A stretch of 64,000 nucleotides of DNA from Candidatus Aenigmatarchaeota archaeon (GTDB taxonomy: Archaea > Aenigmatarchaeota > Aenigmatarchaeia > CG10238-14 > SpSt-28), in NCBI GenBank assembly GCA_038997305.1, contig JAWAZZ010000001.1, positions 44,159-108,158 on the forward strand, in the 5' to 3' direction. Under the pieces are notes generated by a model. That model was given only the letters and a program-made list of their open reading frames with translations, was not told the origin of the DNA and searched no databases. The position numbers were made by a program, and so were the translations under genes. Shown piece by piece: positions 13,572 to 43,775 of this stretch; the first letter of the stretch is position 1; each line of letters starts with the position of its first letter.

Positions 13572-13903
13572 ATGAAACTTATTTCATCAATCTTTCTAAA
13601 CTTAATTCTAGCAACTCTAATAGCTATTAGCACTATACTAATAATTTACTTCACTCAATTTTATCAAACAAAATATGTAGAAGAATTAGAAAGAATTAGA
13701 TTTAATCAGCAAGTTTATGATTTAGCAAAAAAATTAGCAAATTGCTTAGGATTTGAATATGAAAAAACTTATTACTTAGATTATAAAAAAATTGAAGAGT
13801 TTAGTAAAATTTATAATGATATAGAACCAAGATGTGCAATTGCAAAAGATTTTGATTATAATGTTAAAATAATACAATTTGAAAAAGAAGTTAGAAATTA
13901 TCC
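13572..13903 (+). repeat. 332-nt coding module, apparently identical to 16008..16339
   Basis: Read base by base, both copies run from the ATG through ...gaagttagaaattatcc and then diverge. Confidence 0.8.
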
Positions 13904-14963
13904 TTTTCCAATCTTTGAAGAAAAACCAAAAGGGAAAGGTATAGCAGAAGATATCTTAAATAGGATAGATGGAAAAAAGGTAATTTTTGTATTGGATGTT
14001 AGTGGTTCTATGGGAGCTGCAGATACTCCACCATGTAATGGAAAAGAATTTAATAGCGGAGATAATACTAGAATATGTTGCTTAAAAAAGTTTGTTATTC
14101 ATTTTCTAGATAAACTTTCTAACGATACTGAAATTGGAATTAATTTTTTTGGTGTTGGAAATTGCAATTATAATTGGGCTGTAAAACCATATTCAAATAT
14201 TTCTGTAATTTATGAAGTTGCAAAAAAACAAACTCTTTCTCAAACTCCTCAAGATGGCACTCCAATATTAATTTCTTTGTATGATGCAGCTATAAACGCA
14301 GAAAATAATTCTTACGTAGTTCTTCTTACAGATGGTGGAGAAAATTGTGGAGGAGTTAGTTTATCTGAAGTAATTAATTTAATTAAATCAAAAAATTTAA
14401 CTCTACTATCTATAGGTTTTGGAAAAGGTGCTGATGTAGGATTTTTGAAATATTTAAAATCTCAGGTCGGTGGAGAAGTTTATGAAGCTATGAATTGTGA
14501 AGAATTAATAGAAAAGAAGGAAGAGTTTAAACAAAAAATTCTAAAAGTCGAAAGAAAAGAATTTTCTTTTGGTATGTTAGAAAAAGAACTCGCAGGAATA
14601 AGATCTTTTGGTCCAAAAATAAACTTACAAACTTCAATTTCAATCCCAATTTTAATTAAGTACAACGAAACTTTTATAGTTGAAGGATTAATGATAATTA
14701 ATGCATATAAAGGATTTTTAGAAGAATTTTATAGTTTCTTAGACGATATTTGTTCAAAAGATTTTGATAATTTTGAAATTACAAAACAGTTTTATTTTGA
14801 TTATAATGTTAAAATTTTAAAAGAAAATGATTATTATAAAATTTGTAGCGAAAATGTTTGTAAAAAATTAGTTTGTAAGTATGAGATTGAAGAAAAAGAA
14901 TTTGATAAGGGAGATAATGTAATAAATGTGAAAATAGAAAATAAAAAAATTATTATTAGGTGA
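13572..14963 (+). CDS. membrane-anchored von Willebrand factor A (vWA) domain protein; shares identical N- and C-terminal modules with 16008..17798
   Basis: N-terminal TM MKLISSIFLNLILATLIAISTILIIYF. The MIDAS motif VLDVSGSMG and downstream QDGTP and LTDGGEN complete a vWA fold. Confidence 0.7.
   Translation: MKLISSIFLNLILATLIAISTILIIYFTQFYQTKYVEELERIRFNQQVYDLAKKLANCLGFEYEKTYYLDYKKIEEFSKIYNDIEPRCAIAKDFDYNVKIIQFEKEVRNYPFPIFEEKPKGKGIAEDILNRIDGKKVIFVLDVSGSMGAADTPPCNGKEFNSGDNTRICCLKKFVIHFLDKLSNDTEIGINFFGVGNCNYNWAVKPYSNISVIYEVAKKQTLSQTPQDGTPILISLYDAAINAENNSYVVLLTDGGENCGGVSLSEVINLIKSKNLTLLSIGFGKGADVGFLKYLKSQVGGEVYEAMNCEELIEKKEEFKQKILKVERKEFSFGMLEKELAGIRSFGPKINLQTSISIPILIKYNETFIVEGLMIINAYKGFLEEFYSFLDDICSKDFDNFEITKQFYFDYNVKILKENDYYKICSENVCKKLVCKYEIEEKEFDKGDNVINVKIENKKIIIR
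14533..14931 (+). repeat. 399-nt coding module, apparently identical to 17368..17766
   Basis: Both copies run from aaaaaattctaaaagtcgaaag through ...gataatgtaataaatgtga and then diverge. Confidence 0.8.
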
Positions 14964-15004
14964 TACAAAAAGTATTTATATTTTTTTGTACATAAATTAA
15001 TACC

Positions 15005-15196: not shown

Positions 15197-15444
15197 TGTA
15201 TCCTAGAGATAGGTTAACAAGATTTGAAGTAGCTAGAATTATCTCAGCAAGAGCATTACAAATAGAATACGGAGCACCTTGTTTTGTTGATATTAAAGGT
15301 AATTCTATTCAAAAAGCGAAGGAAGAATTTAAAAGAAAGTTAATTCCTTTAACAGTGAGAAGAAGATTACCTAATGGGGAAGTAGTAGAAGTAGACATAG
15401 ATAAAGCGATAGATAATTGGCTTAAGGAGCACGGTGACGTTTAA
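15196..15444 (+). CDS. rpoK: DNA-directed RNA polymerase subunit K (Rpb6 homologue)
   Basis: LTRFEVARIISARALQIEYGAP matches the RpoK/Rpb6 core. It overlaps the rpoN stop (TAATG). Confidence 0.8.
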   Translation: MYPRDRLTRFEVARIISARALQIEYGAPCFVDIKGNSIQKAKEEFKRKLIPLTVRRRLPNGEVVEVDIDKAIDNWLKEHGDV

Positions 15445-15994
15445 TTAATTTTAAAATAATAAAGATAATTACAATTAGAAATGTTAAGAAAATGATGATT
15501 GCTAAATGGTTAGGGTAAGAGTATTTTCTTTCTTCTTTTATTTTTTCTCCTGGAGTTTCTGTACTTTCGTTTTCTAAAACTTTTAAAGTTTGATTTAGTA
15601 AAACTAGTTTAGCTTTTTCTTTATCGCTAATAAAAATTTTTATTAAAGTAGTGTTTTCCGGAAATTTAAAAACTAAGCTTTTTATTATATAATCTTTTTC
15701 TATTATTTCTTTTCCTCTTTTAATGCTAAAAACTTCTTGAAAAAAATCTTCTTTAGAGTAGTTTAGGTAGACAATTTTTAAAACATTGTTTGAAGGATCA
15801 TAGCAAACAACTTTAATATTTCCGCTATTTAAATAATTTTCGTTTGCGAAATCTAAAAAGTAATTTGCAGTAATTTTAACATCTTCGTTTTTACTTATAA
15901 GAATTTCTAAATAAAGAAACTTATCTGAAGAATAAGAATAATGTATTAAAGTGCTTAAGATTAATAAGGGTATTAATATTAATATTTTTTTCAT
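15422..15994 (-). CDS. secreted hypothetical protein with C-terminal TM anchor
   Basis: Signal peptide MKKILILIPLLILSTLIHYSYS and C-terminal TM LAIIIFLTFLIVIIFIILKLIKR. Start placed at the ATG giving MKKIL, 13 nt from the divergent start at 16008. Confidence 0.5.
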   Translation of the reverse strand: MKKILILIPLLILSTLIHYSYSSDKFLYLEILISKNEDVKITANYFLDFANENYLNSGNIKVVCYDPSNNVLKIVYLNYSKEDFFQEVFSIKRGKEIIEKDYIIKSLVFKFPENTTLIKIFISDKEKAKLVLLNQTLKVLENESTETPGEKIKEERKYSYPNHLAIIIFLTFLIVIIFIILKLIKRHRAP

Positions 15995-16007
15995 AAAATA
16001 TATTCTT

Positions 16008-16339
16008 ATGAAACTTATTTCATCAATCTTTCTAAACTTAATTCTAGCAACTCTAATAGCTATTAGCACTATACTAATAATTTACTTCACTCAATTTTAT
16101 CAAACAAAATATGTAGAAGAATTAGAAAGAATTAGATTTAATCAGCAAGTTTATGATTTAGCAAAAAAATTAGCAAATTGCTTAGGATTTGAATATGAAA
16201 AAACTTATTACTTAGATTATAAAAAAATTGAAGAGTTTAGTAAAATTTATAATGATATAGAACCAAGATGTGCAATTGCAAAAGATTTTGATTATAATGT
16301 TAAAATAATACAATTTGAAAAAGAAGTTAGAAATTATCC
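16008..16339 (+). repeat. second copy of the 332-nt module
   Basis: See 13572..13903. Confidence 0.8.
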
Positions 16340-17798
16340 AATACAAATTGGTGGTGGTTGTGGATGGGCATGGGTTGTTAATAGTGGTTCTGGAGGAATG
16401 CATAGTTCAATCTCCTTAGTTACTTCTGAAGGCTCTGAGTTAAGAAGACATTATACTCATCCAAATAAAGCGGGTAATCCATCTAGAACTGCTGTAGATA
16501 TCGAAGGAAATGTTTGGGTTGGAAATAGAGCAGATGGTACTTTAGTTAAAATCACATTTGACAAAAATAAATGTAAAGGAGCTACTTCTGAAGATAAAGA
16601 TGGTAATGGAAAAATTGATTATAATGAAATGCTTGATTTTTCTTCTGATGGATGTATAGAGATAAAGTTAGATTTAAAATGCAGTTATGTTGGTGTCAGA
16701 GCAGTTTGTATAGATAATGAATCAAAATACGTATATGCCGGTTGTTATAATGATAGGAAATTATTTAAAATTTCTAATAAAGATGGTAGCATAGAAAAAG
16801 TCTGGAATTTACCAGCAACTCCTTATGGATGTGTTGTTGGTAATGATGGAAATGTTTGGATTTCAACAGCTTCATCTATTTTAATAAAGTTAAATCCAAA
16901 TACTGATGAAATTAAAACATTTAGTGTTCCTTTCATATATGGCATTTGGAGATGTTATAATTTAGATTGTGTTGTTTTTTCTGAGTGGACTTTAAATAGA
17001 ATTGCACTATTTAATACGACATCTGAAAAAATAATATGGGAAAGATCTAGCGGAATAAATACAAGAGGAGTTTTTGTCGACGAAAATAATTACATTTATG
17101 CAGTAGGAAGTTCTAGTAATGATATATACAAGTATGATATAAATGGAAATTTAATAAAAGTCGCAAAGACTTGTGGAATACCTACAGGAGTTGCTCAAGA
17201 TGCTTGCGGTTATTTGTGGGTGCAATGTATGGATGGTTATGTTTACATTTTTGATAAAGACTTAAATTTAATAAATTTCTTTTCAATATCTGGAATTCAT
17301 TATACTTATTCAGACTTTACAGGATTTTTATCTAATGCAAAAGTTAGTGTGCCACTAAAAATTGAGGAAAAAATTCTAAAAGTCGAAAGAAAAGAATTTT
17401 CTTTTGGTATGTTAGAAAAAGAACTCGCAGGAATAAGATCTTTTGGTCCAAAAATAAACTTACAAACTTCAATTTCAATCCCAATTTTAATTAAGTACAA
17501 CGAAACTTTTATAGTTGAAGGATTAATGATAATTAATGCATATAAAGGATTTTTAGAAGAATTTTATAGTTTCTTAGACGATATTTGTTCAAAAGATTTT
17601 GATAATTTTGAAATTACAAAACAGTTTTATTTTGATTATAATGTTAAAATTTTAAAAGAAAATGATTATTATAAAATTTGTAGCGAAAATGTTTGTAAAA
17701 AATTAGTTTGTAAGTATGAGATTGAAGAAAAAGAATTTGATAAGGGAGATAATGTAATAAATGTGAGAGTAAGTGAAAGAAAATTAATAATTTCATAA
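16008..17798 (+). CDS. membrane-anchored beta-propeller-like protein with EF-hand-type Ca-binding loop; shares N- and C-terminal modules with 13572..14963
   Basis: The first 110 aa and last 133 aa are identical to the vWA paralog. The middle (GNVWVGNRADGTLVKI, DKDGNGKIDYNEM, repeated NVWIS/YVYA blades) is homologous to the N-terminal half of 38418..40652. The true start is ATG at 16008; the track start is upstream. Confidence 0.7.
   Translation: MKLISSIFLNLILATLIAISTILIIYFTQFYQTKYVEELERIRFNQQVYDLAKKLANCLGFEYEKTYYLDYKKIEEFSKIYNDIEPRCAIAKDFDYNVKIIQFEKEVRNYPIQIGGGCGWAWVVNSGSGGMHSSISLVTSEGSELRRHYTHPNKAGNPSRTAVDIEGNVWVGNRADGTLVKITFDKNKCKGATSEDKDGNGKIDYNEMLDFSSDGCIEIKLDLKCSYVGVRAVCIDNESKYVYAGCYNDRKLFKISNKDGSIEKVWNLPATPYGCVVGNDGNVWISTASSILIKLNPNTDEIKTFSVPFIYGIWRCYNLDCVVFSEWTLNRIALFNTTSEKIIWERSSGINTRGVFVDENNYIYAVGSSSNDIYKYDINGNLIKVAKTCGIPTGVAQDACGYLWVQCMDGYVYIFDKDLNLINFFSISGIHYTYSDFTGFLSNAKVSVPLKIEEKILKVERKEFSFGMLEKELAGIRSFGPKINLQTSISIPILIKYNETFIVEGLMIINAYKGFLEEFYSFLDDICSKDFDNFEITKQFYFDYNVKILKENDYYKICSENVCKKLVCKYEIEEKEFDKGDNVINVRVSERKLIIS
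17368..17766 (+). repeat. second copy of the 399-nt module
   Basis: See 14533..14931. Confidence 0.8.
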
Positions 17799-18476
17799 TT
17801 GCGTTTTCTTATATAATTTGACTTTGTTAATTCTTTTGGTATACATAATGAAGGTAATTATAGCTATTGCTATAATTAGAAGTATAAAAATTGAAATTGG
17901 CGGTATATAATATTCTTTGCAATCTGGATCTTCTGGGCAATTCGGTTCGCAATAATTATCTTTTAAATTTGGACAAATTTTTAATTTACAATCATTGCAA
18001 TTAATTTCATTTTCACCAAGCTTTTTTTCACATACTGAATTTTCATTACATATTTTTGTTTCTAGTATTTTTTGATCAAAATTGAACATTTCAATTTTAC
18101 TTAAATCTTTAAGATATGGAAATCTAAAATATTTTTCTAAACATTCGAATTCTACTTCTTCTCCCTTCATCTCTCCAGTAATAGGATCTATTATTTCTCT
18201 ATGAGTTTTAAAAGATTGTGAAAAATTATATTGCAGCAAAACAGAATTATTAGTAGAGTAGAGAAGTATGGTATAATTTCCAAAACCAATTTTATTTGAT
18301 TCTACATATTCTGGATTTTCAATTATTCCATAATCTATCAAAAAAACAGAATTATTTTTACATATATTTATTAGCAAATAAAATGTTTTATCACTTATTA
18401 TTTTTTCTTGGAAAGAAATTTCTAAGTAAATAGATATTATAAATAAAATTAATTGAGATAATAGTTTGATCTTCAT
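17793..18476 (-). CDS. secreted Cys-rich protein with C-terminal TM anchor
   Basis: Signal peptide MKIKLLSQLILFIISIYL, a CNDCKLKICPNLKDNYCEPNCPEDPDC cluster, and C-terminal TM FILLIIAIAIITFIMY. Confidence 0.5.
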   Translation of the reverse strand: MKIKLLSQLILFIISIYLEISFQEKIISDKTFYLLINICKNNSVFLIDYGIIENPEYVESNKIGFGNYTILLYSTNNSVLLQYNFSQSFKTHREIIDPITGEMKGEEVEFECLEKYFRFPYLKDLSKIEMFNFDQKILETKICNENSVCEKKLGENEINCNDCKLKICPNLKDNYCEPNCPEDPDCKEYYIPPISIFILLIIAIAIITFIMYTKRINKVKLYKKTQL

Positions 18477-18489
18477 AATATAAACTTAT

Positions 18490-19872
18490 TTATCTTATAC
18501 AATATTTCATCCATCTACCTAGGCCAGCAGAATAAGGAGGATTTCCCATAAATCCTTCAGATAAAAACTTATAGGCTGCCGGACCGAATTTTTCCATAGG
18601 TAAACAATAATCCATTATAAATTTAGAAACTTCTGGATGATTGCAATCTGGGCAATTAGGTGCAGGTCCACCAAAAAATGGATAATATAGGCATGCATGA
18701 CAATCTACATTACAATTAACATGACCCAAACCCAATTGATGTCCTAATTCATGAGTAGGTACACAAACACGTTTACTACAGCTATGAGCTATACTTGATG
18801 AGCCATCAGAAGGGATTCCTTGTGCGCATCCACCAGCCCAACCGCCACCAGTTGTTAATGCAACAAATTTATCATAATTAACTCCAAATTTATTCTCCAT
18901 TTTTCTTGCGCATTCTCTTGCTATGTCTATACAATCAGAACAATGGTCATAGCAATCTTTATTAGCAGATTCCGGACAATCTGAAATATTAATTATCCAA
19001 AACCTAACTATATCATCTTTATTCTTACATTCTCTAAATGGAGATACCTCAAGAAAATGCTCAATGAAAGATGTTGCAGCAGATAAATACAAGTTCTCAT
19101 CAGTAATATCTACAGGAACTATAAAGACGTCAAAAGTATCTAAATTTATGCAATCTTTTCCATTCCAAGATTTTCCTGGAGGACAACACGCTTTTCCAGA
19201 TTTGTATGATGTAAAATCTTTTGTAACAGGATTGCAAGTTAAGCCGCTAGAGCATTGATTATTGCAATAACATTCTTCACCTTCTTTTAAATTGTATCTT
19301 TTCGTATTTCCAGTTTCATCTGAGCTTGGATCTTCTGGACAGCATACCGCATCACTTTTAATACAATCATTAGAGTTTTTGCAATTTTCTCTTATGTCAA
19401 CATTGCAATAACCATCGTTTATGCATTGAGGATTTGGACCATAACAATCTTGAGAAGAAGTCCTACATTCTATTGGAGTACAAACATTATCGATTAAATA
19501 ATCTATTTTTCTGCAATCTAAAATTCTAATGACACTCTTTTCTTTTATAATACAATATTTGCCAGTATTATATATTTCTATATCTTGAGTTTTAAAAGGT
19601 AAATAATAAGAATATTCATAATCTTTGTAAAAAACTTTCAATTTATTGTCTTTTATTGTTAAGTTACTATATAAAAATTGGTATTCGTAATAAAAGTATT
19701 CGCTTTTTAATTTTGAAATTCTTTCTATTGTGGAAATGAATTTTTCAATTTCTTCGTTGAATTTTTGTTTTTCTAAACTTTTAGAAAAATTAAATAGAAA
19801 AATCTGAAATGCAGTAAAAAACAAAATTCCAATTACTATTGAAATCGTTATTAAGGAAAAAATATTTGTCAT
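18490..19872 (-). CDS. membrane-anchored metzincin-type zinc metalloprotease with Cys-rich module
   Basis: Exact HExxHxxGxxH motif (HELGHQLGLGH) with a downstream Met-turn candidate FIMDY. N-terminal TM. The Cys module GEECYCNNQCSSGLTCNPV...ACCPPGKSWNGKDC recurs in 38418..40652. Confidence 0.7.
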   Translation of the reverse strand: MTNIFSLITISIVIGILFFTAFQIFLFNFSKSLEKQKFNEEIEKFISTIERISKLKSEYFYYEYQFLYSNLTIKDNKLKVFYKDYEYSYYLPFKTQDIEIYNTGKYCIIKEKSVIRILDCRKIDYLIDNVCTPIECRTSSQDCYGPNPQCINDGYCNVDIRENCKNSNDCIKSDAVCCPEDPSSDETGNTKRYNLKEGEECYCNNQCSSGLTCNPVTKDFTSYKSGKACCPPGKSWNGKDCINLDTFDVFIVPVDITDENLYLSAATSFIEHFLEVSPFRECKNKDDIVRFWIINISDCPESANKDCYDHCSDCIDIARECARKMENKFGVNYDKFVALTTGGGWAGGCAQGIPSDGSSSIAHSCSKRVCVPTHELGHQLGLGHVNCNVDCHACLYYPFFGGPAPNCPDCNHPEVSKFIMDYCLPMEKFGPAAYKFLSEGFMGNPPYSAGLGRWMKYCIR

Positions 19873-20390
19873 GAAATTCTTAATATTAGGTAACCAATTT
19901 CCTCATCTGGCATAGGTATTGGCAAAACATAACTTTTTATCGTTTCTGAAGGTTTTAAATTATAACCATAGATTTCGTATAAGCTTTGGTTTTTATATAT
20001 AACTAGCTGCCATCTTTCTTTACCAATCATATTATCTAACATAGGATAAAGCAAATCTGAAGAATTATATGCTCCTAAAGCCATTCCATAATAAACAATT
20101 TTTCCTAAACCAAGATCTTCTTTAACTTTTTCTCTTTCACTTTCTTTCCATTTATTTAGAGTTAGTAGCGCATCTATCGATGTTTGTAAATAAGTTTTTT
20201 CTAATGTAGGTAATTTGGCTGTATAAACTGAAGCTAATGTTTTTAATGCTAAATCATCTATAACAGAAAATCTATGAAAATATTGGGATTTTGTTGAGAG
20301 TTGTGAAATGTAATACAATGTAATTACTATAACAATAGATGAAATTATTAAAATAATACCAATCCATATAATTTCACTTTGAAGTTTCAT
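19869..20390 (-). CDS. small protein with N-terminal TM helix (possible pilin-like or minor filament subunit)
   Basis: MKLQSEIIWIGIILIISSIVIVITLYY followed by a soluble ~140-aa domain. Co-oriented and overlapping the metzincin gene. Confidence 0.4.
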   Translation of the reverse strand: MKLQSEIIWIGIILIISSIVIVITLYYISQLSTKSQYFHRFSVIDDLALKTLASVYTAKLPTLEKTYLQTSIDALLTLNKWKESEREKVKEDLGLGKIVYYGMALGAYNSSDLLYPMLDNMIGKERWQLVIYKNQSLYEIYGYNLKPSETIKSYVLPIPMPDEEIGYLILRIS

Positions 20391-20419: not shown

Positions 20420-21748
20420 ATGTTAAAGTTACAAGTAGCACAATTTGCTTTTATAATATTTGCTATACTTTTTTTTCTTTTAAGTTTATATTTGTCATAT
20501 TTTCAATTTGGAAAAAGAATAGAAGAAATTAGCAATATAAGAACTATTGACATTTTTGAAAATTTGAAACATATTATAGATGGGTATGCGAAATTAGCAC
20601 TTTATTATGCTACAACTCAAAATTTTAGAGAAGAAAGTCATGTATGGATTCAAAATGGATTCAATCCGCTAGAGTTTGAACTTTTAAAAGAATGCAAAGA
20701 AAATTACACTACATTTTTCTTTAATCAATATCTTTCAAAATTTAATGTTAATTTACCAGTTAATATAGAAATTAAAAAAGTAAACAGATGCTTTTTTGAT
20801 TTAAAAGAAGAAAATGTTTTTAGTGGCTTGAACGATGAGGGAAATTTTTCTGTTTTTTGCAATTCTACTAACGTAAAAATTTATATAAATGAAACATTTC
20901 TTTTAGACTTTATTAATTCTTCTAACTTTATAACTAACAACAGGTATTGGTATCTTTATAGAAAGTTTTATGAATGGGCTAAAGAAAATGCAGATAAATT
21001 TGTGGCTTGTGTCTGTTCATTAGTAAAATCTTGTGCAACCTGTAATGCAATAGAAACATGTTATAAAGGCTTATTAGAAAGTTTGAGAAATAAGTTTAAA
21101 GATGATAAATATGTTGAATGTAATACAGATCCTACTCCTTGTTGCTATCAAGAATATGGCGATTTATGTAAATTACCAGATGTTTGTCAAGCATGGCAAA
21201 ATAGATGTTATGTTGCAGATAAGTTGGATTGTCCTATACTAGAAGAATCAGATGAGAAAAAAACACACGGCTATAAAAATCATAACGAAAACAACTACTT
21301 AATAGAATTTTCTAAAAATGTAGTTCTTTCTAATCCTCAAAATTATGTTACCGAATTTTATTGTGAAAGTTGTATATGGCAAGAGAATAGAATAGAAACT
21401 CATAGAAGATATTATTGTATAGATTATAAGTACTATGAATCAAGTCCTTCTGGTCCAAAACCAATAGAATTTACTGCGATAGTTTATGCTGGCTTAAAGA
21501 ACTATGTTTCTTGCATTTCTAAAGTCAAAAATAAGTGCGAAAGTATAACCACAGAATGTGAAAATTGTAATGATGTTGGAGGTAAAACTATATGTGATAA
21601 ATGTATTTTAAAAAACTGTGAAAAAAAGGGATGTAAAGAATGTTGGTTAGAGTGCGAAGAATGTGAAGTTAAGAAATTAAATGGAGAATTCGAAGTTATC
21701 CAGTGTAAAAAATGTAAGAATAAGCCAGATGATGTCTGTCCAAAATGA
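20420..21748 (+). CDS. membrane-anchored Cys-rich protein
   Basis: N-terminal TM with more than 35 Cys. C-terminal CENCNDVGGKTICDKCILKNCEKKGCKECWLECEECE cluster. Confidence 0.5.
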   Translation: MLKLQVAQFAFIIFAILFFLLSLYLSYFQFGKRIEEISNIRTIDIFENLKHIIDGYAKLALYYATTQNFREESHVWIQNGFNPLEFELLKECKENYTTFFFNQYLSKFNVNLPVNIEIKKVNRCFFDLKEENVFSGLNDEGNFSVFCNSTNVKIYINETFLLDFINSSNFITNNRYWYLYRKFYEWAKENADKFVACVCSLVKSCATCNAIETCYKGLLESLRNKFKDDKYVECNTDPTPCCYQEYGDLCKLPDVCQAWQNRCYVADKLDCPILEESDEKKTHGYKNHNENNYLIEFSKNVVLSNPQNYVTEFYCESCIWQENRIETHRRYYCIDYKYYESSPSGPKPIEFTAIVYAGLKNYVSCISKVKNKCESITTECENCNDVGGKTICDKCILKNCEKKGCKECWLECEECEVKKLNGEFEVIQCKKCKNKPDDVCPK

Positions 21749-22131
21749 AAACAATAGAAATAATATTAGTTTTAATTTTTTCAGTTTTTGGATTAGTACT
21801 TCTATTAAATTATATCTTTGGAATAAAATTTATTAAATTTGAAAGCGAAGAATTGACATTTCTAAAAAAAGAGGATTTTTTGTTTAAGATTAATGAGTTA
21901 GTTTCTAATTGTTTAAATAAAAAGACTAACAAAAGAGAAATTTGCTATTACGTCTATTACAAAGGTTTGCAAGATGTTTCTTCTGAAGAAATACTTTCAA
22001 AAATAATTCCTGAAAACAGAAATAAAATTAAAATAACTTTCGAAAAATTGATTAGCAACGAAAAAATTATAATAATTTATGTTCCTTTTGATTTGGTTGA
22101 AATTGTAAAATATTCTGAAATATCAAAATAA
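21745..22131 (+). CDS. small protein with N-terminal TM helix (pilin-like candidate)
   Basis: MKTIEIILVLIFSVFGLVLLLNYIFG plus a ~100-aa domain. Start overlaps the upstream stop (ATGA). Confidence 0.4.
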   Translation: MKTIEIILVLIFSVFGLVLLLNYIFGIKFIKFESEELTFLKKEDFLFKINELVSNCLNKKTNKREICYYVYYKGLQDVSSEEILSKIIPENRNKIKITFEKLISNEKIIIIYVPFDLVEIVKYSEISK

Positions 22132-25020: not shown

Positions 25021-25023
25021 AAT

Positions 25024-25458: not shown

Positions 25459-25459
25459 A

Positions 25460-26881: not shown

Positions 26882-27003
26882 CTACAGGAACTAACTTCGG
26901 TAGAGAAATTATTACAGACGCGAGTTATGCAATAGTTTTTTTACCTTTACCATTTTCTGATCGTGCCGCCGATATTTCTTTAGTTTTCTCTAATGTTCAA
27001 GAT

Positions 27004-31651: not shown

Positions 31652-31688
31652 TATGGATAAATATTTATTGTTAAACAAAATAATAATT

Positions 31689-36154: not shown

Positions 36155-38380
36155 ATGGTGAAATTAATAAACTTACAAAAATCAAAAATATTTTTCCTTC
36201 TTACCATTCTAATATTTAATCTGTTTGTTTTCTCTTATTCTTTTTCTCAAGAAGGTTTAACTATAACATTGAAAAAAGGATGGAATCTAATTTCTTTACC
36301 AGCTGAAGATATAAAAATTAAAAATACAAATTGTGACATTAGGTCGATATGGGCATATGAAAACGGCAAATGGAATAAGTTATCTTCTTTGGAAAATTTG
36401 AGAGTTGGAAAAGGTTATTGGGTATATGTAAGAAACGATTGTGAAATTAATTTTGAAGGAAGTTTTGTAATTGGAACAACATTAGAAAACATAACAAAAG
36501 GATGGAATTTAGTTGGTGTTAATTCTGAAATCTTTGTAAGTAGATTAAAAGAGATATGTCCTACAGTAAGAACTGTATGGTCATATGAAAATGGTAAATG
36601 GATAAAATTAAAAGATGATGATAAATTAGTTCCTAATAAGGGATATTGGGTATATTCAAACGGATATTGTGATGTTAGAAAATCTTCCTTAGAAAAAATT
36701 ACAAGGGAGGTTTCTCCCAAATTATCTCAAGTCGTTATGCAGGATCTACAGAATACAAATAAAATTGCTTCTATTCCAGCTATTCTTTTGTTGGTTCCTG
36801 ATGTTGTGGATCAGCTTAATACAGAAGTCTCAGTAGTATTAATATCTAGAATGATTTTCAAAATACCTTATGATGCATTTCCTTTAACACTTAAAGTCAA
36901 AAATTATAGAGGTTTTGATATTTGTGAAAGAAATATAAGAAGCTTTGATGAACTTTTTAGAATTTTTGGCTTAGATATAATAAATGTTTGTTCTTTCATA
37001 GTAAAAGATCAATCATATGAAGGTGCTTATGAATTGTTTGTATTTGATAGGAGCAACAACTTAATATTTAATGTAAAGTCTATTTCAGAACTAAAAATAG
37101 GTAAAGAAACAACTTATCCAACAGAAGAATGTAAGATATCTTATTTTGTAGTGAATTCAACAACTATCGATTGTAAGAGTGATAAACATCCTATAATTAT
37201 TAAATTTAATGCTAGCAAGGAATGCGTAGGAAAGGAAGTTAGAATACAGATCATACCAGAAGCAAGACTAATAGGTCCATTGTCAAAAGGTGTTATTATT
37301 AGGAGTTTTAATAAATCATTTGAAGTTTGCAAATTTAAGATAGAAAAAGTTGGAGAAAATACGGTAAGATGTGAAATTAATGTTTCTGCTTTGAAAGAGC
37401 ATCTAAAAGGAGAGATAGATGAAAAAATGTTAGGAGAGGCATATGTACTAGTAAGGGCAGATTATGAAGGATTAGGTAATTACAGATATATAGGAAGGGT
37501 AGGTATATTACCTGAATGTTTCAAAACAAGTAATTGTGAGGTATCTATAAAGGGAAAGGTTGTAAATGCAGATGTGAGAAATTGTGGTGATTTGACTAAA
37601 TTGGACTTTTATGTAGATATGTCTGTGAGATATAAACAGGGGGAGCGAGACTCTTGCCCAAACAAATATGAAATTTATATATTAGATTCGGGTGAAGTTT
37701 GGAATAATGTTGGTAAAGGTGAAATAGATCTTGGAGATTTGCAGCCAACTCCACCACTAGAAGAAAATGGTTATGAAAGTCTGTTCGGAAGTCTAACTAT
37801 ACCTGCTAAGACTATTGTAACATACAATGGTCAGAAAAAAGAATTTATGATAGTGGTTGTTGGAGTCTTTGAAAATGAAAGAGGAATGCCAAAGAAAGTC
37901 ATATTGGCTAACACAACATTAACGTATTTTGCTGAATGTTTAAAATGTAGAGTAAAAGAAGCAAAATTAAGTTTAGATCCAAGTGAAATAACAACTTGTC
38001 CATTTAAAGTAAAAGCTAAAATTGAGGCAGAAGTTGAGAATTGTTGGAAAGATTCAGTGATTGTTGCAAGAGTATATAAACTTGACAAATTTATGCATTC
38101 AATAGATGATAAATTAGAGGTTTGTAAAGCGACAAAAACATTGTCAGATCTCGAATCAAATCCACCATCATTACCAGAAGATAAGACACCACCTTCTGTG
38201 AGTGGAAAAGTAACACTATCTTGCGAATTTTATGTTAAGACAGAAGCAGATAGTGGATATTATTTTGCCATAACAGGTAATGGAGTATCTAATTTAGCAT
38301 TCTTAAATGTAACCTGTGAAAACATAAGAAGAAGACCAATAGTTCCAGAACCTCTTTCTACAGTATTGAATATAAGATAG
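36155..38380 (+). CDS. large secreted surface protein with two N-terminal GWNL repeats
   Basis: Signal peptide MVKLINLQKSKIFFLLTILIFNLFVFSYSFS. Repeats LKKGWNLISLPAED...IWAYENGKWNKL...GKGYWVYVRNDCEI and ITKGWNLVGVN...VWSYENGKWIKL...NKGYWVYSNGYCDV. Confidence 0.6.
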   Translation: MVKLINLQKSKIFFLLTILIFNLFVFSYSFSQEGLTITLKKGWNLISLPAEDIKIKNTNCDIRSIWAYENGKWNKLSSLENLRVGKGYWVYVRNDCEINFEGSFVIGTTLENITKGWNLVGVNSEIFVSRLKEICPTVRTVWSYENGKWIKLKDDDKLVPNKGYWVYSNGYCDVRKSSLEKITREVSPKLSQVVMQDLQNTNKIASIPAILLLVPDVVDQLNTEVSVVLISRMIFKIPYDAFPLTLKVKNYRGFDICERNIRSFDELFRIFGLDIINVCSFIVKDQSYEGAYELFVFDRSNNLIFNVKSISELKIGKETTYPTEECKISYFVVNSTTIDCKSDKHPIIIKFNASKECVGKEVRIQIIPEARLIGPLSKGVIIRSFNKSFEVCKFKIEKVGENTVRCEINVSALKEHLKGEIDEKMLGEAYVLVRADYEGLGNYRYIGRVGILPECFKTSNCEVSIKGKVVNADVRNCGDLTKLDFYVDMSVRYKQGERDSCPNKYEIYILDSGEVWNNVGKGEIDLGDLQPTPPLEENGYESLFGSLTIPAKTIVTYNGQKKEFMIVVVGVFENERGMPKKVILANTTLTYFAECLKCRVKEAKLSLDPSEITTCPFKVKAKIEAEVENCWKDSVIVARVYKLDKFMHSIDDKLEVCKATKTLSDLESNPPSLPEDKTPPSVSGKVTLSCEFYVKTEADSGYYFAITGNGVSNLAFLNVTCENIRRRPIVPEPLSTVLNIR
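36265..36680 (+). repeat. tandem pair of GWNL aromatic repeat modules (coding)
   Basis: See the 36155..38380 translation. Confidence 0.65.
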
Positions 38381-38417
38381 ATAAAATCGAATTTAATATA
38401 CACACAAAATAATATTT

Positions 38418-40652
38418 ATGAGGAGAGTATTTTTTGTTTTTTTAGCTTTATTTTTAGTATTTTCATTATCAAATTTTTCTTATTCTTCGGAATGCGCAGC
38501 ATACTTGCTTAATTCTTGTGAATTTTCAGATAGGTATGAGTGCAGTTCTGTAAGTTTAGTCAGCGAAAGCGGCTTAGAATATAGAAGACATTACATAAGT
38601 GATAAAGATATAGCCCCTATTTCAATTGCTATAGATAGATATGGAAATGCTTGGATAGGAACAAAGGAAAATGAAATAGTTAAAATAAATTTTGATTGCA
38701 AAAATAATATAGATTCTGACGGTGATGGAAAAGTGAGTATTAGTGAAATGAATGACATAAAAGACGATAAGTGTATAGAGCTAAGATTAAAACTTCCTTG
38801 TAAAAAAATTAATTCTGTTTGCATCGATTTTATTAATGATTTTTTGTATGCTGGATGTTATGATTCAAAACTATTTTATAGAATATCTTTAGATGGCGAA
38901 ATTTTAAAAAGTTGGAAATTAGATTATGGACCTTTTAATTGTGTTGTAGACGATGCATCTAATGTTTGGATTTCTACATTGTCAAAAAACTTAATAGAAA
39001 TAAACTTTGAATCAGATAAACCAGAATATTATAAAGTTAGTGACAAAACATATAGTATTTCTAAATGTAAAGATAAAGATTGTCTAATAATAACTTCTGA
39101 AGAAAGTGGCAAAGTATTAATATTTAACACATCATCTAAAAAGGTAACTTTAGAGAGGAAAATTTCTTCTTATGCAATTTCTTCCATTTCTGATGATAAT
39201 TTTATTTATTTGTTGGATAGCAAAGAGGGGAAAATATACAGGCTCGATTTTAATTTAAACATATTGAATAATTTAGATATATGTAAATGGCCAATATCTG
39301 TTTCTATTGATTCTTGTAATAATGTTTGGATTATTTGTAGCGAGGAGTTATTAATATTATCTAAAGATTTTTCGAAAATAAACAAATATTCTATATCTTC
39401 TTCCAGGTTTTTTATTTCTGATTTTACTGGGTATTATTCTAATGCAAATATAAGAATAGAGCAAAAAAGTTTGCAAAAATTCAGAGATAACGATGGCAAA
39501 TGCGAAATAGATAAGGGAGAAAATTGTGCAACATCTCCTAATGATTGTAGTTGCGGAAATGGTAAAATTTGTTGTATTAACGATCCAAAAAAAGATGAAA
39601 GGGGTTGTACAAACAGAAAAGCTAAAGAAGGAGAAGAATGTTATTGTAGCTCTCAATGTTTAGATAATCTGAATTGCAATCCGGTAGCTCCAAATTTCAA
39701 TAAATATAGTAGAGCTTGTTGCCCTGCCGGAAAAGTTTGGAATGGAACACATTGCACAGAAAGCGATTTACTTAGTTTTTGTCCTAAAGATACTAACTGT
39801 AAATCTTTTTGGCCGAACAAGCAAGGAAAATTATTATCTATAAACGAAGAAAATTATGCTTGTGATTTATTTGAAGTTTGTCATCCATATGTTCAAAGTA
39901 TAGCAAGAGAAGCCTTTGAATGTTGTTCAAAGGAGTGCAATTCTAATTGTCACTCTTATTGTAAAGAAGCTTTAGAATATTCTGGTTATAACAAAGAAAA
40001 AACTTATGAAAGATTAAAGTTTTGTATGGGACTATACATAACTTCTGGATTTGGCCCAGCAAAAAGATTTATGATAGGTTATAATGATGCTGAAATTTGT
40101 TGTGGAGCGAAATATTTTCCAGATAATAATATTAGAGATGTTTTAGAAGGTGTTTGTAAATCTGCTTATGGGGATAGTTTTATTGGCAAATGCGAACCTA
40201 AAATAGAAAATACTGGTCTAAAAGATTTAGAATGTAAAGAAGCAGTAAGTAAATATCCTTTGGGATGGAAAAGCGATAATAATATGAAAGAAAATAGCTG
40301 TATATTCTCTGATTTGCCTGCTCATGTTACTCTAAACTTTATAAAAACTGGAATATGTGTAGATTATTCTGTTGCGTTAACTTCTGCATTAAGAGCTGCT
40401 GGGTATTCTTCGAATGAAGTTTATACTGTTGTGGCACCTGGACATGCTTATAATTTAGTTCTATTTCCTCTAAATGAAAAATATACTATAGTAGATACTA
40501 CTGCCAATTATCCAAATAATTGGCGTCCGGGTCAGCAGCCAGGAAAGTATAACTTTGGAAATATTATGAAAAGTAGATGTGAATACGAGCAATGTATGAA
40601 TGATAATGGTATATTAACTTGTCCACCCAAAAATTTAGTTTATGGTTGCTAA
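38418..40652 (+). CDS. secreted beta-propeller-like + Cys-rich + C-terminal transglutaminase-like (Cys-His-Asp) domain protein
   Basis: Signal peptide MRRVFFVFLALFLVFSLSNFSYS. The N-terminal half is homologous to the middle of 16008..17798, including the EF-hand loop DSDGDGKVSISEM. The Cys module GEECYCSSQCLDNLNCNPV...ACCPAGKVWNGTHC is shared with the metzincin. The C-terminal triad is GICVDYS ... GHAYNLV ... IVDTT. Confidence 0.65.
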   Translation: MRRVFFVFLALFLVFSLSNFSYSSECAAYLLNSCEFSDRYECSSVSLVSESGLEYRRHYISDKDIAPISIAIDRYGNAWIGTKENEIVKINFDCKNNIDSDGDGKVSISEMNDIKDDKCIELRLKLPCKKINSVCIDFINDFLYAGCYDSKLFYRISLDGEILKSWKLDYGPFNCVVDDASNVWISTLSKNLIEINFESDKPEYYKVSDKTYSISKCKDKDCLIITSEESGKVLIFNTSSKKVTLERKISSYAISSISDDNFIYLLDSKEGKIYRLDFNLNILNNLDICKWPISVSIDSCNNVWIICSEELLILSKDFSKINKYSISSSRFFISDFTGYYSNANIRIEQKSLQKFRDNDGKCEIDKGENCATSPNDCSCGNGKICCINDPKKDERGCTNRKAKEGEECYCSSQCLDNLNCNPVAPNFNKYSRACCPAGKVWNGTHCTESDLLSFCPKDTNCKSFWPNKQGKLLSINEENYACDLFEVCHPYVQSIAREAFECCSKECNSNCHSYCKEALEYSGYNKEKTYERLKFCMGLYITSGFGPAKRFMIGYNDAEICCGAKYFPDNNIRDVLEGVCKSAYGDSFIGKCEPKIENTGLKDLECKEAVSKYPLGWKSDNNMKENSCIFSDLPAHVTLNFIKTGICVDYSVALTSALRAAGYSSNEVYTVVAPGHAYNLVLFPLNEKYTIVDTTANYPNNWRPGQQPGKYNFGNIMKSRCEYEQCMNDNGILTCPPKNLVYGC

Positions 40653-41322
40653 AACGTTTTTATTTATCTTTTTGCTATTGATTTTTTCTAGCTTTGTTTA
40701 TTCTTGTATAAATGTTAATAAGACTTCTAATGTAACTATAGCAAAAACTAACGAAGCAATTGAAATTAAAATATTTATAGAAAACAAATGTGAAAAAGAT
40801 AAAGAGATTACAATTGTTGAGGACGTTTTTGGTGACGTTATTTATCCTAGAGAAAATTTAGTCTTTTACAATACTTCCGAAAAAGTTTTTATTTGGAGAT
40901 CTCCTCAATTGATTTGGAAAAATATTAACTTGGAGGCAAATCAGAAAATAAGCATTAGCTACGTAATTTATTTTGATACAGTAGATAAATTTGTAATTCC
41001 TCCTACAAAGGTTTTAGATGAAAGCGGTAATGTTTATAACTCTAATTCCATTGAAATAAAAATTGAATGTAATAGGAATGGGATGTGTGAAAAAATGTAT
41101 GCAGAGAATTATGTAAATTGTCCAGAGGATTGTAAAGTAAGTAGTGAAGATGGTATTTGTAGTGGGTATGTTAATGATCCTGACTGTAAGACTCAAATAA
41201 AAACAGAAGAGAAAAAGGAAGAAAATTTTTTATTCTACGTTTTCGTAATATCTTTAATTGTTTTATCTGTTTTGCTTGTGTTATACAGATTTGTTATAAG
41301 AAAAACTTTAACTAAATCTTAA
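40642..41322 (+). CDS. secreted protein with C-terminal TM anchor
   Basis: Signal peptide MVAKTFLFIFLLLIFSSFVYS and C-terminal TM FLFYVFVISLIVLSVLLVLYRFVI. Overlaps the upstream gene by 11 nt. Confidence 0.5.
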   Translation: MVAKTFLFIFLLLIFSSFVYSCINVNKTSNVTIAKTNEAIEIKIFIENKCEKDKEITIVEDVFGDVIYPRENLVFYNTSEKVFIWRSPQLIWKNINLEANQKISISYVIYFDTVDKFVIPPTKVLDESGNVYNSNSIEIKIECNRNGMCEKMYAENYVNCPEDCKVSSEDGICSGYVNDPDCKTQIKTEEKKEENFLFYVFVISLIVLSVLLVLYRFVIRKTLTKS

Positions 41323-41357
41323 AATTTTAATAATCGGGTTTTTATAAATTATTATTT

Positions 41358-43775
41358 ATGGCGAGAAAAATTCATTACTTCTTATTCCTTATTTATTTTC
41401 TATTTTTAATTACTAGTGTTGGATTATCAGATAGTTACTCTTTAGAGCTTAAAAAAGGATGGAACCTAATTTCTTTACCACTAAAAAATATAAAAGTTGA
41501 AAACGTGGAGTGTGAAATTAAATCTATTTGGTCATATGAAAACGGCAAATGGAAAAAATTGAGTAATATTAATCAGTTAGTTTCTGGTAAAGGATATTGG
41601 ATTTATGTTAGAAGTGCTACATGTGATATTGTTATCTATGGAGATAAAATAAATTATAATCCAATAGAAAAATTAAGTAAAGGATGGAATTTAGTTGGAA
41701 TAGGTTCTAATGAAATATATGTTAAAGACTTAAAAAATGTTTGTAAAAATATTACTAGAATTTGGGGTTATGAAAACGGCAAATGGATAAAATTAAATGA
41801 TGAAGATAAATTAGTTCCTGGTAAAGGATATTGGATATATAGTAGAGATGAATGTGATTTGCAGCAAACATCTCAAAATGAAAAATTATGTAAAATAGAG
41901 TCTGTTTCTACAAGTATAAATGAGATAAATGATTGCGATAAAGAGCAGAATATAAGACTCGTAGTTAAATTAAGTGGAGATTGTAGCAATAATATAGTTA
42001 AAATTAAAGAAATAAATCAAAATATCGAATGCAAAATTGATAAAGATGAATGTAATATAGTAATAAATAATCCTAAACAATATGATGGCAAAACTTTGAA
42101 TTTTAGGGTTTATCTTGATGATAAAGATCTGAATACAGAAATAAAAATAACTGTAAAATGTAATAAGGAGTCTCAAGTTTGTAAATCTGGTCAAACAAAA
42201 TGTGAAAATAACAAATTGTACGAATGTGTTAATGGACAATGGCAAGATAAAACTCCTTCATGTCCACAAGATCAACAGTTTGTATGTCTAGATCAAGCTC
42301 GCGGAGAATGTAAAGCCTGTGAGTTTGGTCAAACAAAATGTGAAAATAATAAGATGTATGTTTGTGTAGATGGCAAATGGAAAGAAATATCTCCACCTTG
42401 TACAATTGGAGAAAATTTTGTTTGTATAAATGATAAGCAAGGTGAATGCAAACCTATAGAAACATGTCAGTCTGGACAAATAAAATGTGAAGGTAACAAA
42501 TTCCTCATTTGTATTGATAATAAGTGGATGGGTACATATGTTCCACCATGTCCAGTTTATACTAATATTGAAGTTCCTAGATTCGAGTGTGTAAATAATA
42601 TGACGGGAGTCTGTAAACCTTCAGAATCATCTTATAGAGTTACTGATTTTGAGGTCAAATGTATAAAAGAAATAAATAAGATTTTTTTGGTTAGAAAAGA
42701 TAATGGAGCTTATATAGAGATTTATCCTCAATGTCCAAGTGGTTATTCATTTGTTTGTATTAATGATAGAGATGGAAAATGTGTTCTAAGCGATGCTTCC
42801 CAAATATGTAAAAATAGTGAAACAAAATGTGAAAATGATGAACTTTTCGTTTGTGCTGGAAATAGATGGACTAAGGTAACATTTCCTTGTGATGAATGCG
42901 AATATTTTGTTTGCAAAAACGATAAAACAGGAACTTGTGCTAAGCTAACTACTAAATGTCTTAACAATAAGAATATTTTGTTGAAATGTGTAGGAGGAGA
43001 AAAATATTGGTGGGAAAAAGTCAATATAACATGCGAAAACAATCAGAAATTTGTTTGTACAAATTATACTAGTGGAGAATGCCTTAAGATGAAGGACACC
43101 AAAATAACTATAGAAGTTTTAGATAATGGTGGAGATCCATATTATGGTATTTTAAGGATTGTTGTTAATAAATTGTTAACTCCGAAAGAATTTTGGGAAA
43201 ATATTAGGAGAGAAGAAGATACATTTTTAGTTGGGAAAGGTGAAAAGATAGAGTTCGAAATTTCAGATTTTCTGAAATTCGCTGATATTGCTATAAATTC
43301 GGAACATACATGGACTATAAAAGTTACAGATCCTTTCGGAAACGTTAAAGTTTGTAAAGTTAATAAAGATTTGAGATGTAGAATAGGATATGAACCTGCT
43401 GATGAAATTATACTTGAAGTATTAGATGTAGAACTTCCAAAGGACTTGAAAAATGTAGATCCTTATTCTGTTAGAGAACAGTTTTACATATATCTGATAG
43501 ATGATTGGATTATAAATAAGTATAATACTAAATATGAAAGTTATCTTAAATGTATGACATCATATTTATCTAAGGGTGAAACTTATAGATGTAAGCTTTA
43601 TGGGAGTCCTTATTATGGTGTTAGAATAACTACGTATGCTGTTAGGTTAAACTGGGTAGTAAGAGTTACAGATCCTTTTGGAAACGTTAAAGTTTGTAAA
43701 ATAAATTATAAAAACAGTTGTGAAATAAATCTCAATCCTTTATATGAGATATTTAAAAATTTAAGAGAAAAATAG
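41358..43775 (+). CDS. giant secreted Cys-rich modular surface protein (2 GWNL repeats, about five ~45-aa Cys6 repeats, C-terminal duplicated VTDPFGNVKVCK module)
   Basis: Signal peptide MARKIHYFLFLIYFLFLITSVGLS. Repeats as listed below. The C-terminus carries WTIKVTDPFGNVKVCKVNKDLRC and VVRVTDPFGNVKVCKINYKNSC. Confidence 0.65.
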   Translation: MARKIHYFLFLIYFLFLITSVGLSDSYSLELKKGWNLISLPLKNIKVENVECEIKSIWSYENGKWKKLSNINQLVSGKGYWIYVRSATCDIVIYGDKINYNPIEKLSKGWNLVGIGSNEIYVKDLKNVCKNITRIWGYENGKWIKLNDEDKLVPGKGYWIYSRDECDLQQTSQNEKLCKIESVSTSINEINDCDKEQNIRLVVKLSGDCSNNIVKIKEINQNIECKIDKDECNIVINNPKQYDGKTLNFRVYLDDKDLNTEIKITVKCNKESQVCKSGQTKCENNKLYECVNGQWQDKTPSCPQDQQFVCLDQARGECKACEFGQTKCENNKMYVCVDGKWKEISPPCTIGENFVCINDKQGECKPIETCQSGQIKCEGNKFLICIDNKWMGTYVPPCPVYTNIEVPRFECVNNMTGVCKPSESSYRVTDFEVKCIKEINKIFLVRKDNGAYIEIYPQCPSGYSFVCINDRDGKCVLSDASQICKNSETKCENDELFVCAGNRWTKVTFPCDECEYFVCKNDKTGTCAKLTTKCLNNKNILLKCVGGEKYWWEKVNITCENNQKFVCTNYTSGECLKMKDTKITIEVLDNGGDPYYGILRIVVNKLLTPKEFWENIRREEDTFLVGKGEKIEFEISDFLKFADIAINSEHTWTIKVTDPFGNVKVCKVNKDLRCRIGYEPADEIILEVLDVELPKDLKNVDPYSVREQFYIYLIDDWIINKYNTKYESYLKCMTSYLSKGETYRCKLYGSPYYGVRITTYAVRLNWVVRVTDPFGNVKVCKINYKNSCEINLNPLYEIFKNLREK
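41445..41862 (+). repeat. tandem pair of GWNL aromatic repeat modules (coding)
   Basis: LKKGWNLISLPLKN...IWSYENGKWKKL...GKGYWIYVRSATCDI and LSKGWNLVGIG...IWGYENGKWIKL...GKGYWIYSRDECDL. Confidence 0.7.
42180..43090 (+). repeat. array of ~45-aa Cys6 repeats, C..GQTKCENNK.Y.C..G.W......C.....FVC......GEC (coding)
   Basis: About 5 copies. The first copy is about 92% nt-identical to 34537..34680 in the other giant gene, compared by eye. Confidence 0.6.

Follow-up and report, generated by a model that had tools for sequence, protein, structure and literature searches.

A candidate type IV filament locus with domain-bearing pilin-like proteins and a variable cysteine-rich gene array in an Aenigmatarchaeota genome

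The locus described here is a block of genes for predicted membrane and secreted proteins in the genome of a Candidatus Aenigmatarchaeota archaeon, a small organism of hot springs (GCA_038997305.1). It was analysed within a window, i.e., a 64-kb stretch of contig JAWAZZ010000001.1, to which all coordinates refer unless another locus is named; the genome loci compared are numbered L001 to L069, and the non-housekeeping genes of the block g1 to g22. The block spans positions 13572-43775, between the 23S rRNA gene and rps9, and contains 25 genes lying on both strands and in several operons. Three of them (rpoN, rpoK and rpl24) are housekeeping genes for cytoplasmic proteins, interspersed among the others. 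Membrane or export signals are predicted for 22 of the 25 genes: 20 of these 22 encode an N-terminal hydrophobic segment, the remaining two being g9, which is polytopic, and g15, which has internal transmembrane (TM) segments, and an additional C-terminal TM anchor is found in g2, g4 and g21. Cysteine makes up 3.82% of residues within the block versus 0.84% in the 35 other open reading frames (ORFs) of the window, a 4.5-fold enrichment; seven block proteins contain 22-58 cysteines each, and the secreted proteins encoded in the window outside the block contain none. Given these gene signals and this cysteine contrast, the observation from which the work started, an original prediction of an extracytoplasmic, modular, cysteine-rich block with pilus-type parts made from the DNA letters, is therefore real and far from chance. 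Most of the domain assignments in that prediction were upheld as well.

The same prediction had treated the block as one integrated island, which does not stand. The block consists of two parts: a conserved core (13.6-26.0 kb plus g18) and a variable array (26.5-43.8 kb). The rpoNK-rpl24 stretch is syntenic in relatives, whereas the rpl24-rps9 stretch is largely strain- or clade-specific. Two other descriptions of the block were rejected. It does not look like a mobile island, as there is no integrase and no flanking tRNA, housekeeping genes are interspersed, and the G+C content is barely raised (0.28-0.33 vs 0.26, a slight rise only, in a window of about 27% G+C). The alternative that the original prediction had itself named, an S-layer or glycosylation locus, was dropped because the block is without glycosyltransferases: no glycosyltransferase or AglB-type match was found inside 13.5-44 kb, and the GT4 genes seen upstream (L068) are separated from the block by more than 20 kb and precede the window start.

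The signature gene of the cluster is g9 (22136-24193, +). Members of its family were found at 64 genome loci, counted at species level, the majority of which bear the label Aenigmatarchaeota, and g9 itself is 100% identical to QW197_00375 of a Candidatus Aenigmatarchaeota metagenome-assembled genome (MAG). The Pfam family T2SSF (PF00482) matches 7 of 24 g9-family members (best 2.9e-6; 1.5e-4 for the L042 orthologue). In the AlphaFold2 model of g9 (pLDDT 82), domains match the cytoplasmic domains of GspF/OutF (probability 0.92-0.96, TM-score 0.67). Furthermore, a T2SSE ATPase of about 745 aa is encoded directly beside the g9 orthologue at six loci (L042, L059, L033, L036, L054 and L053). The family matches, the model and the ATPase adjacency all point to g9 as a divergent platform protein of the TadC/FlaJ/PilC type, in agreement with the TadC/FlaJ-like polytopic protein predicted at this place. 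At the Aenigmatarchaeota loci L033 (5480-12489) and L036 (9896-16989) the genes are arranged in the order platform, g13-like pilin, 743-aa ATPase and second platform, and the same order is found at L054 (5154-12004). The second platform paralogue is about 645 aa long, and the window g9 is orthologous to the first platform of such loci; neither the second paralogue nor the ATPase is present in the window. As a separate observation on the surroundings of this family, genes for a RuBisCO large subunit (form III-type) and an AMP-phosphorylase-like protein lie directly upstream of the g9 orthologue at L003 (7043-9923), and unannotated ORFs at L058 (6139-9285) match this pair in size, order and strand. 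RuBisCO and AMP-phosphorylase form a nucleotide-salvage pair that is common in DPANN archaea and unrelated to pilus genes.

The families of g1/g3, g5, g6, g7, g11, g13 and g18 recur beside g9 in other genomes. The orthologues there have at their start a signal peptide of class III, MKG↓ or M(R/K)KG↓ (the arrow marks the cleavage site), followed by a hydrophobic helix. Co-occurrence with g9 was observed at 32 loci for g13, 32 for g18, 19 for g5, 18 for g11, 16 for g1, 14 for g6 and 14 for g20. Eight proteins of the block are thus pilin-like by orthology (g18 together with g1, g3, g5, g6, g7, g11 and g13); for g8 and g12 the only ground is a resemblance of the N-terminus. Because three of the six small proteins with an N-terminal TM segment, and the large vWA, propeller, metzincin and g7 proteins, belong to families with MKG↓ orthologues, the core reads as a type IV filament (TFF) or type IV pilus (T4P) locus in which pilin-like proteins have been functionalised, and systems of this kind are known.

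Among these proteins, g18 (35380-36087, +; 32 loci) is likely the major pilin and the best available candidate for that role. It is a canonical type IV prepilin with the N-terminus KG↓FTAIE, as the original prediction had recognised, and an alignment of 19 family members shows no variation at Lys-2, at Glu+5 or at eight cysteines of the globular part, and almost none at Gly-1. The prediction had also listed six small proteins with an N-terminal TM segment. All six are present, and they are of three kinds. Pilin-like by orthology are g6 (19869-20390, -), whose orthologues start MKG↓, and g11 and g13, which together with g12 form a group of three small pilin-like genes (24541-25993, -); no family is linked to g9 more often than that of g13. 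Resemblance of the N-terminus is what places g12 and g8 (21745-22131, +; N-terminus MKTIE...), the latter having homologues only within the clade. The sixth, g10 (24195-24554, +), always directly follows the platform gene and has orthologues without the motif; by its position it is classed as a conserved accessory protein and is no more than a possible pilin.

Four of the pilin-like proteins carry large outer domains. The pilin-like helix of g1 (13572-14963, +) is followed by a vWA domain that lies above the Pfam threshold (VWA 8.9e-8, 33 bits vs a cut-off of 23.8) and has the predicted MIDAS motif, DVSGSM at residue 142; vWA orthologues elsewhere start MRGQ, MKGQ or MNKGQ. No g1 is found at the corresponding position in L001, L004 and L005. 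In relatives the 23S rRNA gene abuts rpoN directly, and here g1 is inserted between them. The ends of g1 are identical to those of g3, over 334 nt at the 5' end and 399 nt at the 3' end (both 100%), and the 5' match including the upstream region covers 355 nt at 98.3%. These shared ends argue that g1 is a recent, strain-specific chimera: its two ends, the promoter-proximal 5' one and the 3' one, are those of g3, and a vWA domain stands in place of the propeller. In g3 itself (16008-17798, +), the pilin-like helix precedes an NHL/YVTN-type beta-propeller. The profile of the g3/g20 propeller family matches PknD/NHL-type propellers in the PDB (2.8e-24) and, at 3e-9, the YVTN propeller of the Methanosarcina mazei S-layer protein (1L0Q), in multiple stretches. 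The beta-propellers with EF-hand loops described earlier are thereby confirmed, with a single PROSITE-type EF-hand calcium loop each in g3 (residue 196) and g20. The g3 orthologues in L026 and L018 start MKAQ.

A protease domain of the metzincin type is predicted in g5 (18490-19872, -; 19 loci), behind a pilin-like helix and a Cys-rich stalk. The zinc motif HELGHQLGLGH fits HExxHxxGxxH exactly, as had been noted, and is conserved in three close family members; a further 7 of the 15 aligned members keep HExxH, with the third zinc ligand variable or unaligned. The fold has moderate backing: the family profile matches adamalysins (3e-4) as well as archaemetzincin and ulilysin, the Pfam Reprolysin_3 match is below the cut-off, and the Met-turn candidate FIMDY is plausible only. 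Orthologues of g5 keep the pilin helix and the Cys-rich stalk, and their catalytic domain varies by lineage between metzincin, papain-like (CxGGW) and subtilisin-like. Exchanged domains (L041 6339-7733, L063 12854-14275, L013 18173-19792 and L003 14297-16657) are papain-like, with cathepsin matches by family profile, or belong to Peptidase_S8, with weak matches. The g5 family thus exhibits protease cassette swapping on a pilin scaffold. The fourth large protein, g7 (20420-21748, +), joins a pilin-like helix to a domain with 32 cysteines and no family match, and its L052 orthologue starts MKGQ. Two anchored proteins stand among these genes. One is g2 (15422-15994, -), with a signal peptide and a C-terminal TM segment, which is clade-specific: BLAST found homologues only in L001, L004 and L005, and phmmer added a marginal match in L058 (E 0.003). 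The other is g4 (17793-18476, -), with a signal peptide, a Cys motif and a C-terminal TM segment, whose family, which includes the paralogue g21, follows the protease-pilin gene at many loci.

The cleavage motif of these proteins has changed in the thermophilic clade to which the window belongs. Gly-1 is lost in seven of the eight pilin-like proteins supported by orthology. For example, MKG↓LALE of g13 orthologues has become MKL-IAIE here and MKS in L006; MKG↓FMEE of g6 orthologues has become MKLQSE, MILQSE or MIFQSE in the clade; and g11 starts with MEIPFQ here. Even g18 orthologues are without the motif in L001 and L005 (VKL↓FTAIE and FKQ↓FTAIE), and KG↓ is kept in the window and in L006. 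The ORFs of the motif-less pilin-like genes cannot be extended upstream. The motif being missing, normal prepilin processing is doubtful, and the pattern suggests altered or lost processing by signal peptidase III in this clade.

Machines of this general kind have been described, so the claim that the ensemble matches no described system was too strong: both DPANN pilus islands and functionalised TFF machines are on record. Archaeal T4P loci are highly diverse, and T4P loci of both archaea and bacteria have been associated with vWA proteins and transglutaminase-family surface peptidases (PMC4858521). In DPANN archaea, dark-matter islands that combine TadC or FlaI with signal-peptide proteins have been read as pilus loci (PMC6393860), and FlaI, FlaJ and type IV pili have been recorded in Aenigmarchaeota MAGs (PMC8407114). 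A classification of archaeal TFF includes two-platform DPANN loci, PilY-like adhesins, and binding proteins with class III signal peptides that functionalise TFF machines (bioRxiv 10.64898/2026.04.22.720090); the gene order of L033 and L036 agrees with its two-platform DPANN loci, and the terms "Aenigm", "protease" and "vWA" do not occur in its text.

Compared with archaeal TFF/T4P loci (system 1/subsystem 4A of Sivabalasarma & Albers 2026; clades 1 and 4 of Makarova et al. 2016), the Aenigmatarchaeota loci share a TadC/FlaJ platform with many divergent pilins bearing class III signal peptides, two platform paralogues flanking a T2SSE ATPase (in the orthologous loci L033 and L036), and associated adhesin-like accessory proteins and surface proteins of the transglutaminase family (a candidate assignment here). 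They differ in that the platform gene is mostly detached from the ATPase and placed among pilin-like genes, that a protease domain (of metzincin, papain-like or S8 type, depending on the lineage), a vWA domain or a propeller is joined to the pilin helix, and that the cleavage motif is degenerate in this clade, with no family-level sequence match to described pilins. The tips of bacterial Tad/Flp and T4aP systems (TadE, TadF, the vWA minor pilin TadG, and the propeller/vWA adhesin PilY1) likewise combine minor pilins, a large vWA or propeller protein and a TadC-type platform. The present system, however, is archaeal and Cys-rich, is without secretin or outer-membrane parts, and has vWA and propeller each fused to a pilin helix; the likeness would be one of analogy or distant homology only. 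The DPANN dark-matter islands of Makarova, Wolf & Koonin (2019, Fig. 2A) are alike in having unannotated signal-peptide blocks beside TadC/FlaI that were taken as diverse pilins. That description is generic and covers neither the families found in Aenigmatarchaeota nor the domain fusions, the loss of the motif or the adjacent hypervariable array. That islands of this sort code for surface structures of the pilus type had been proposed before; new are the specific families, the fusions of protease, vWA and propeller with pilin helices, the detachment of platform from ATPase, the clade-wide motif loss and the hypervariable neighbouring array.

The Sulfolobus bindosome (Bas) and other functionalised TFF machines deserve a separate comparison, as they also place extracellular domains on a pilin-type N-terminus and also depend on a platform and an ATPase possibly encoded elsewhere. 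By that analogy the locus might encode a pseudopilus like that of the bindosome or of type II secretion, i.e., a short scaffold that positions or releases Sec-exported Cys-rich proteins and enzymes and forms no adhesive pilus. The many different low-copy pilin-like genes, the enzymes fused to pilin helices and the secreted proteins encoded right beside the core would fit such a scaffold, as would the resemblance to the bindosome and to TFF machines functionalised by class-III-signal-peptide proteins. However, the cargo here consists of adhesin and protease domains and not of solute-binding proteins, there is no ABC transporter or substrate-binding protein in the cluster, the cargo genes are clustered with the platform, and the fused vWA and propeller are typical adhesin modules. 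To our knowledge, no experimental system of such a kind exists in DPANN archaea. We consider such a scaffold quite unlikely.

The variable array comprises g14-g17 and g19-g22, and most of it encodes secreted mosaics. Its first two genes, g14 and g15 (26510-30588, +), are probably a single gene for some 1330 aa that a 5-bp duplication at 26858 has interrupted here, and they have no homologue in 67 loci. The joint product would comprise a signal anchor, possibly a metallophosphoesterase, a coiled coil, a region with a TM hairpin and, C-terminally, a Cys-rich domain. The phosphoesterase call is weak: g15 shows the calcineurin-like motif order DxH..GDxxDK..GNHD..GH on which the earlier call was based, the Pfam match (E 0.0045) is below the cut-off, and a profile of the g15 N-terminus found no match in the PDB. 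The secreted protein g16 (30572-31651, +) ends in a tandem aromatic beta-module. Such a tandem pair is also present at the N-termini of g17, g19 and g22. The repeat, previously described as a new one of about 62 aa, is real and has a different period, about 78 aa (234 nt). The model of the pair is confidently all-beta (pLDDT 88) and has no close solved relative, and only three homologues were found in the database.

Besides this pair, g17 (31614-35339, +; 58 Cys) contains at least four full copies of a repeat of about 105 aa and one Cys6 repeat. The repeats, reported earlier as Ig-like and about 104 aa long, are genuine, and their Ig-type Pfam matches stay below threshold. In g19 (36155-38380, +), a secreted mosaic as well, the aromatic pair is followed by partial 105-aa repeats and unique sequence. 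The last mosaic, g22 (41358-43775, +; 50 Cys), has three Cys6 units and a duplicated unique C-terminal unit. The Cys6 repeat of the original prediction, of about 46-49 aa, was thus recovered in three copies in g22 and one in g17. Nucleotide sequence is shared between g17 and g22 (338 nt at 95.6% and 133 nt at 91.7%), which, with the identical ends of g1 and g3, bears out the predicted exchange of modules at 92-100% nucleotide identity. Tandem Repeats Finder reported nothing relevant in the block because the DNA that encodes the protein repeats has diverged too far. The Sec-type mosaic g20 (38418-40652, +) combines a g3-like propeller, a g5-like Cys-rich stalk and a transglutaminase-like C-terminus, whose family has at least 209 relatives in a representative library. 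Across a sample alignment of 15 sequences, the Cys-His-Asp core noted earlier is represented by C177 and H206, which never vary, and by D223, which hardly does. The transglutaminase assignment has moderate support, as PF01841 (Transglut_core) matches 11 of the 15 relatives, all below the gathering score (best 3.5e-4), and the profile found no match in the PDB. The remaining gene, g21 (40642-41322, +), belongs to the g4 family and encodes a signal peptide, a beta-sandwich-like region, a Cys motif and a C-terminal TM segment.

Synteny separates the two parts of the block. In the relatives L001, L004, L005 and L006, whose g9 is 70-82% identical, the rpoNK-rpl24 stretch is syntenic gene for gene except for the missing g1. 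Between rpl24 and rps9 these loci have only one or two genes plus the g18 orthologue, e.g., a 1271-aa repeat protein plus g18 in L001 and a 160-aa protein plus g18 in L006. For most of the sequence of g14-g17, g19, g22 and the C-terminus of g20, the 67 loci contain no homologue. One might then regard the pilus cluster and the variable Cys-rich genes as unrelated neighbours in a permissive region between housekeeping genes, with no integrated system at all. Part B, as we call the array, is indeed missing from close relatives that conserve part A, the core; rpoN, rpoK and rpl24 interrupt the block; and its genes lie on both strands and in several operons. Nevertheless, g20 of part B reuses the propeller and the Cys-rich stalk of the pilin-like proteins g3 and g5, the canonical prepilin g18 stands inside part B and is rps9-proximal in relatives likewise, and aromatic-module proteins occupy the corresponding slot of L004, L005 and L006. 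Mere neighbourhood is therefore very improbable.

Variation is also seen between nearly identical strains. A second MAG, L069 (GCA_044343115.1), is 99.6% identical over 25.1-43.9 kb and lacks one 315-nt repeat unit of g17 (window region 33031-33345). Its g14 and g15 form a single 1331-aa ORF; the window carries a 5-bp tandem duplication at 26858-26862. The two sequences further differ in a T7/T6 tract at 26574 (g14) and an A7/A8 tract at 39587 (g20), both of which shift reading frames. These differences may represent contingency-type (phase-variation-like) variation, or they may be assembly errors.

DPANN archaea presumably live in attachment to other cells, and we know of no attachment machinery that has been defined for Aenigmatarchaeota. 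The reading we favor is that the block encodes a pilus-like core with domain-bearing pilins together with a strain-variable Cys-rich array, the two working as joint surface machinery, and we give it a probability of roughly 0.6. From gene content, orthology, the class III signal peptides of orthologues, domain identities, synteny and variability, all of them observed, we infer filament assembly and the co-operation of parts A and B; adhesion to surfaces or to host or partner cells is plausible from the domain types and the DPANN lifestyle. Under this reading, part A would be an Aenigmatarchaeota-wide TFF/T4P-like cluster with g9 as platform, g18 as the likely major subunit and several minor pilin-like proteins, among which the membrane-anchored partners g2, g4, g10 and g21 would sit. 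Powered by an ATPase of the T2SSE family whose gene lies at another place in the genome, g9 would extract the pilin-like proteins from the membrane into a short pilus or pseudopilus. The minor subunits g1, g3, g5 and g7 would display at the surface a vWA domain, a propeller with a calcium loop, a stalk with a metzincin, and a 32-Cys domain, respectively. Part B would consist of Sec-exported disulfide-rich mosaics made by shuffling a few modules (aromatic pair, 105-aa repeats, Cys6, propeller, Cys-rich stalk and transglutaminase-like domain), and would probably supply variable binding or enzymatic specificities on the same surface. Folding of these proteins could be aided by a DsbA-like neighbour. 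This membrane-anchored thiol-disulfide oxidoreductase (45097-46056, +; Pfam DSBA 6.3e-6, DsbC_N 5.9e-5) is encoded just outside the block, past rpl18e, and its position is conserved in L001 and L005. Its likely role is that of an extracytoplasmic disulfide catalyst and folding helper for the Cys-rich proteins of the block.

Several observations weigh against this reading. For the platform, g9 itself has no Pfam match, its profile has no sequence match in the PDB, and the whole-chain Foldseek E-values are not significant. For the subunits, the globular parts of g13 and g18 matched no solved pilin by profile in the PDB, and the [KR]-[GA] cleavage motif is missing from 10 of 11 pilin-like N-termini in the clade (MKL, MKS, MIL, MEI...). 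For the assembly machinery, neither a T2SSE assembly ATPase nor a prepilin peptidase of the Peptidase_A24 type was found in the 64-kb window, in the 10 kb upstream or in the closest relatives, at L001, L004, L005 and L006. Adjacency, shared modules (g20 with g3 and g5) and Cys chemistry are all that links parts A and B, and the organism is uncultured, with no host known to us. A regular-expression search for a prepilin peptidase with the GxGD motif across all loci returned nothing credible, the proteins retrieved by homology to the L042 ATPase were mostly from Woesearchaeota and Nanoarchaeota and none had the locus-tag prefix of this MAG, and no pilus genes lie in the 10 kb upstream of the window.

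The same observations could be explained by a degenerate filament, in which the pilin-like proteins are uncleaved and unpolymerised and form a static membrane display, with g9 kept as an organising or insertion platform. Ten of 11 pilin-like proteins have lost Gly-1, in the window as well as in L001, L004 and L005, and g18 of L001 and L005 is among those affected; this loss speaks for such a display, as does the lack of a peptidase or ATPase near the locus. Yet g9 is full-length and 70-85% identical within the clade, the N-terminal helices are still pilin-like, g18 retains Glu+5, and its KG↓ is kept in the window and in L006. Moreover, the leaders are only two to three residues long, so assembly without cleavage is conceivable, and the ATPase could be anywhere in the remaining genome. 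We regard a static display as rather unlikely, and prefer an assembling filament surrounded by variable Cys-rich proteins. A more specific proposal is that the filament of this clade has dispensed with prepilin cleavage, its near-leaderless pilins (MK-L/S..., MEI...) being assembled uncleaved or fixed as a membrane display, and that the array diversifies by cassette exchange (as in g1/g3), repeat gain and loss, and frameshifts at homopolymers or short duplications, forming a contingency system that tunes host or surface specificity in an archaeon with a small genome. This proposal is tentative and, on balance, doubtful.

If the pilus-like core and variable array are read correctly, a 30-kb block of "hypothetical proteins" turns into a concrete, phylum-wide parts list (a platform, a canonical pilin and domain-bearing pilin-type proteins), beside which stands a strain-variable set of disulfide-rich proteins. 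Two testable hypotheses follow. One is that proteases and adhesins, beyond solute-binding proteins, can functionalise type IV filament machines; the other is that one clade gave up signal-peptidase III processing. The families of g9, g13, g18 and g5 can serve as markers for finding the apparatus in metagenomes, and the block proteins are candidate antigens for localising the contact site.

Four features of the window outside the block are recorded for completeness. At 4844-7991 (-), genes for a MacB/FtsX-type ABC exporter and for a secreted protein with a CARDB domain and no Cys occur together; a separate secreted protein, also without Cys and with weak DUF11-like matches, is encoded at 56811-58214 (+). 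Two small membrane proteins of 119 and 93 aa are encoded in tandem at 232-869 (+); they have very hydrophobic N-termini and no family assignment. The 23S rRNA gene (10479-13504, +) stands alone, with no 16S or 5S gene elsewhere in the 64-kb window, and has a G+C content of 53% vs about 27% for the rest of the window. High-G+C rRNA in an AT-rich genome is typical of a thermophile.

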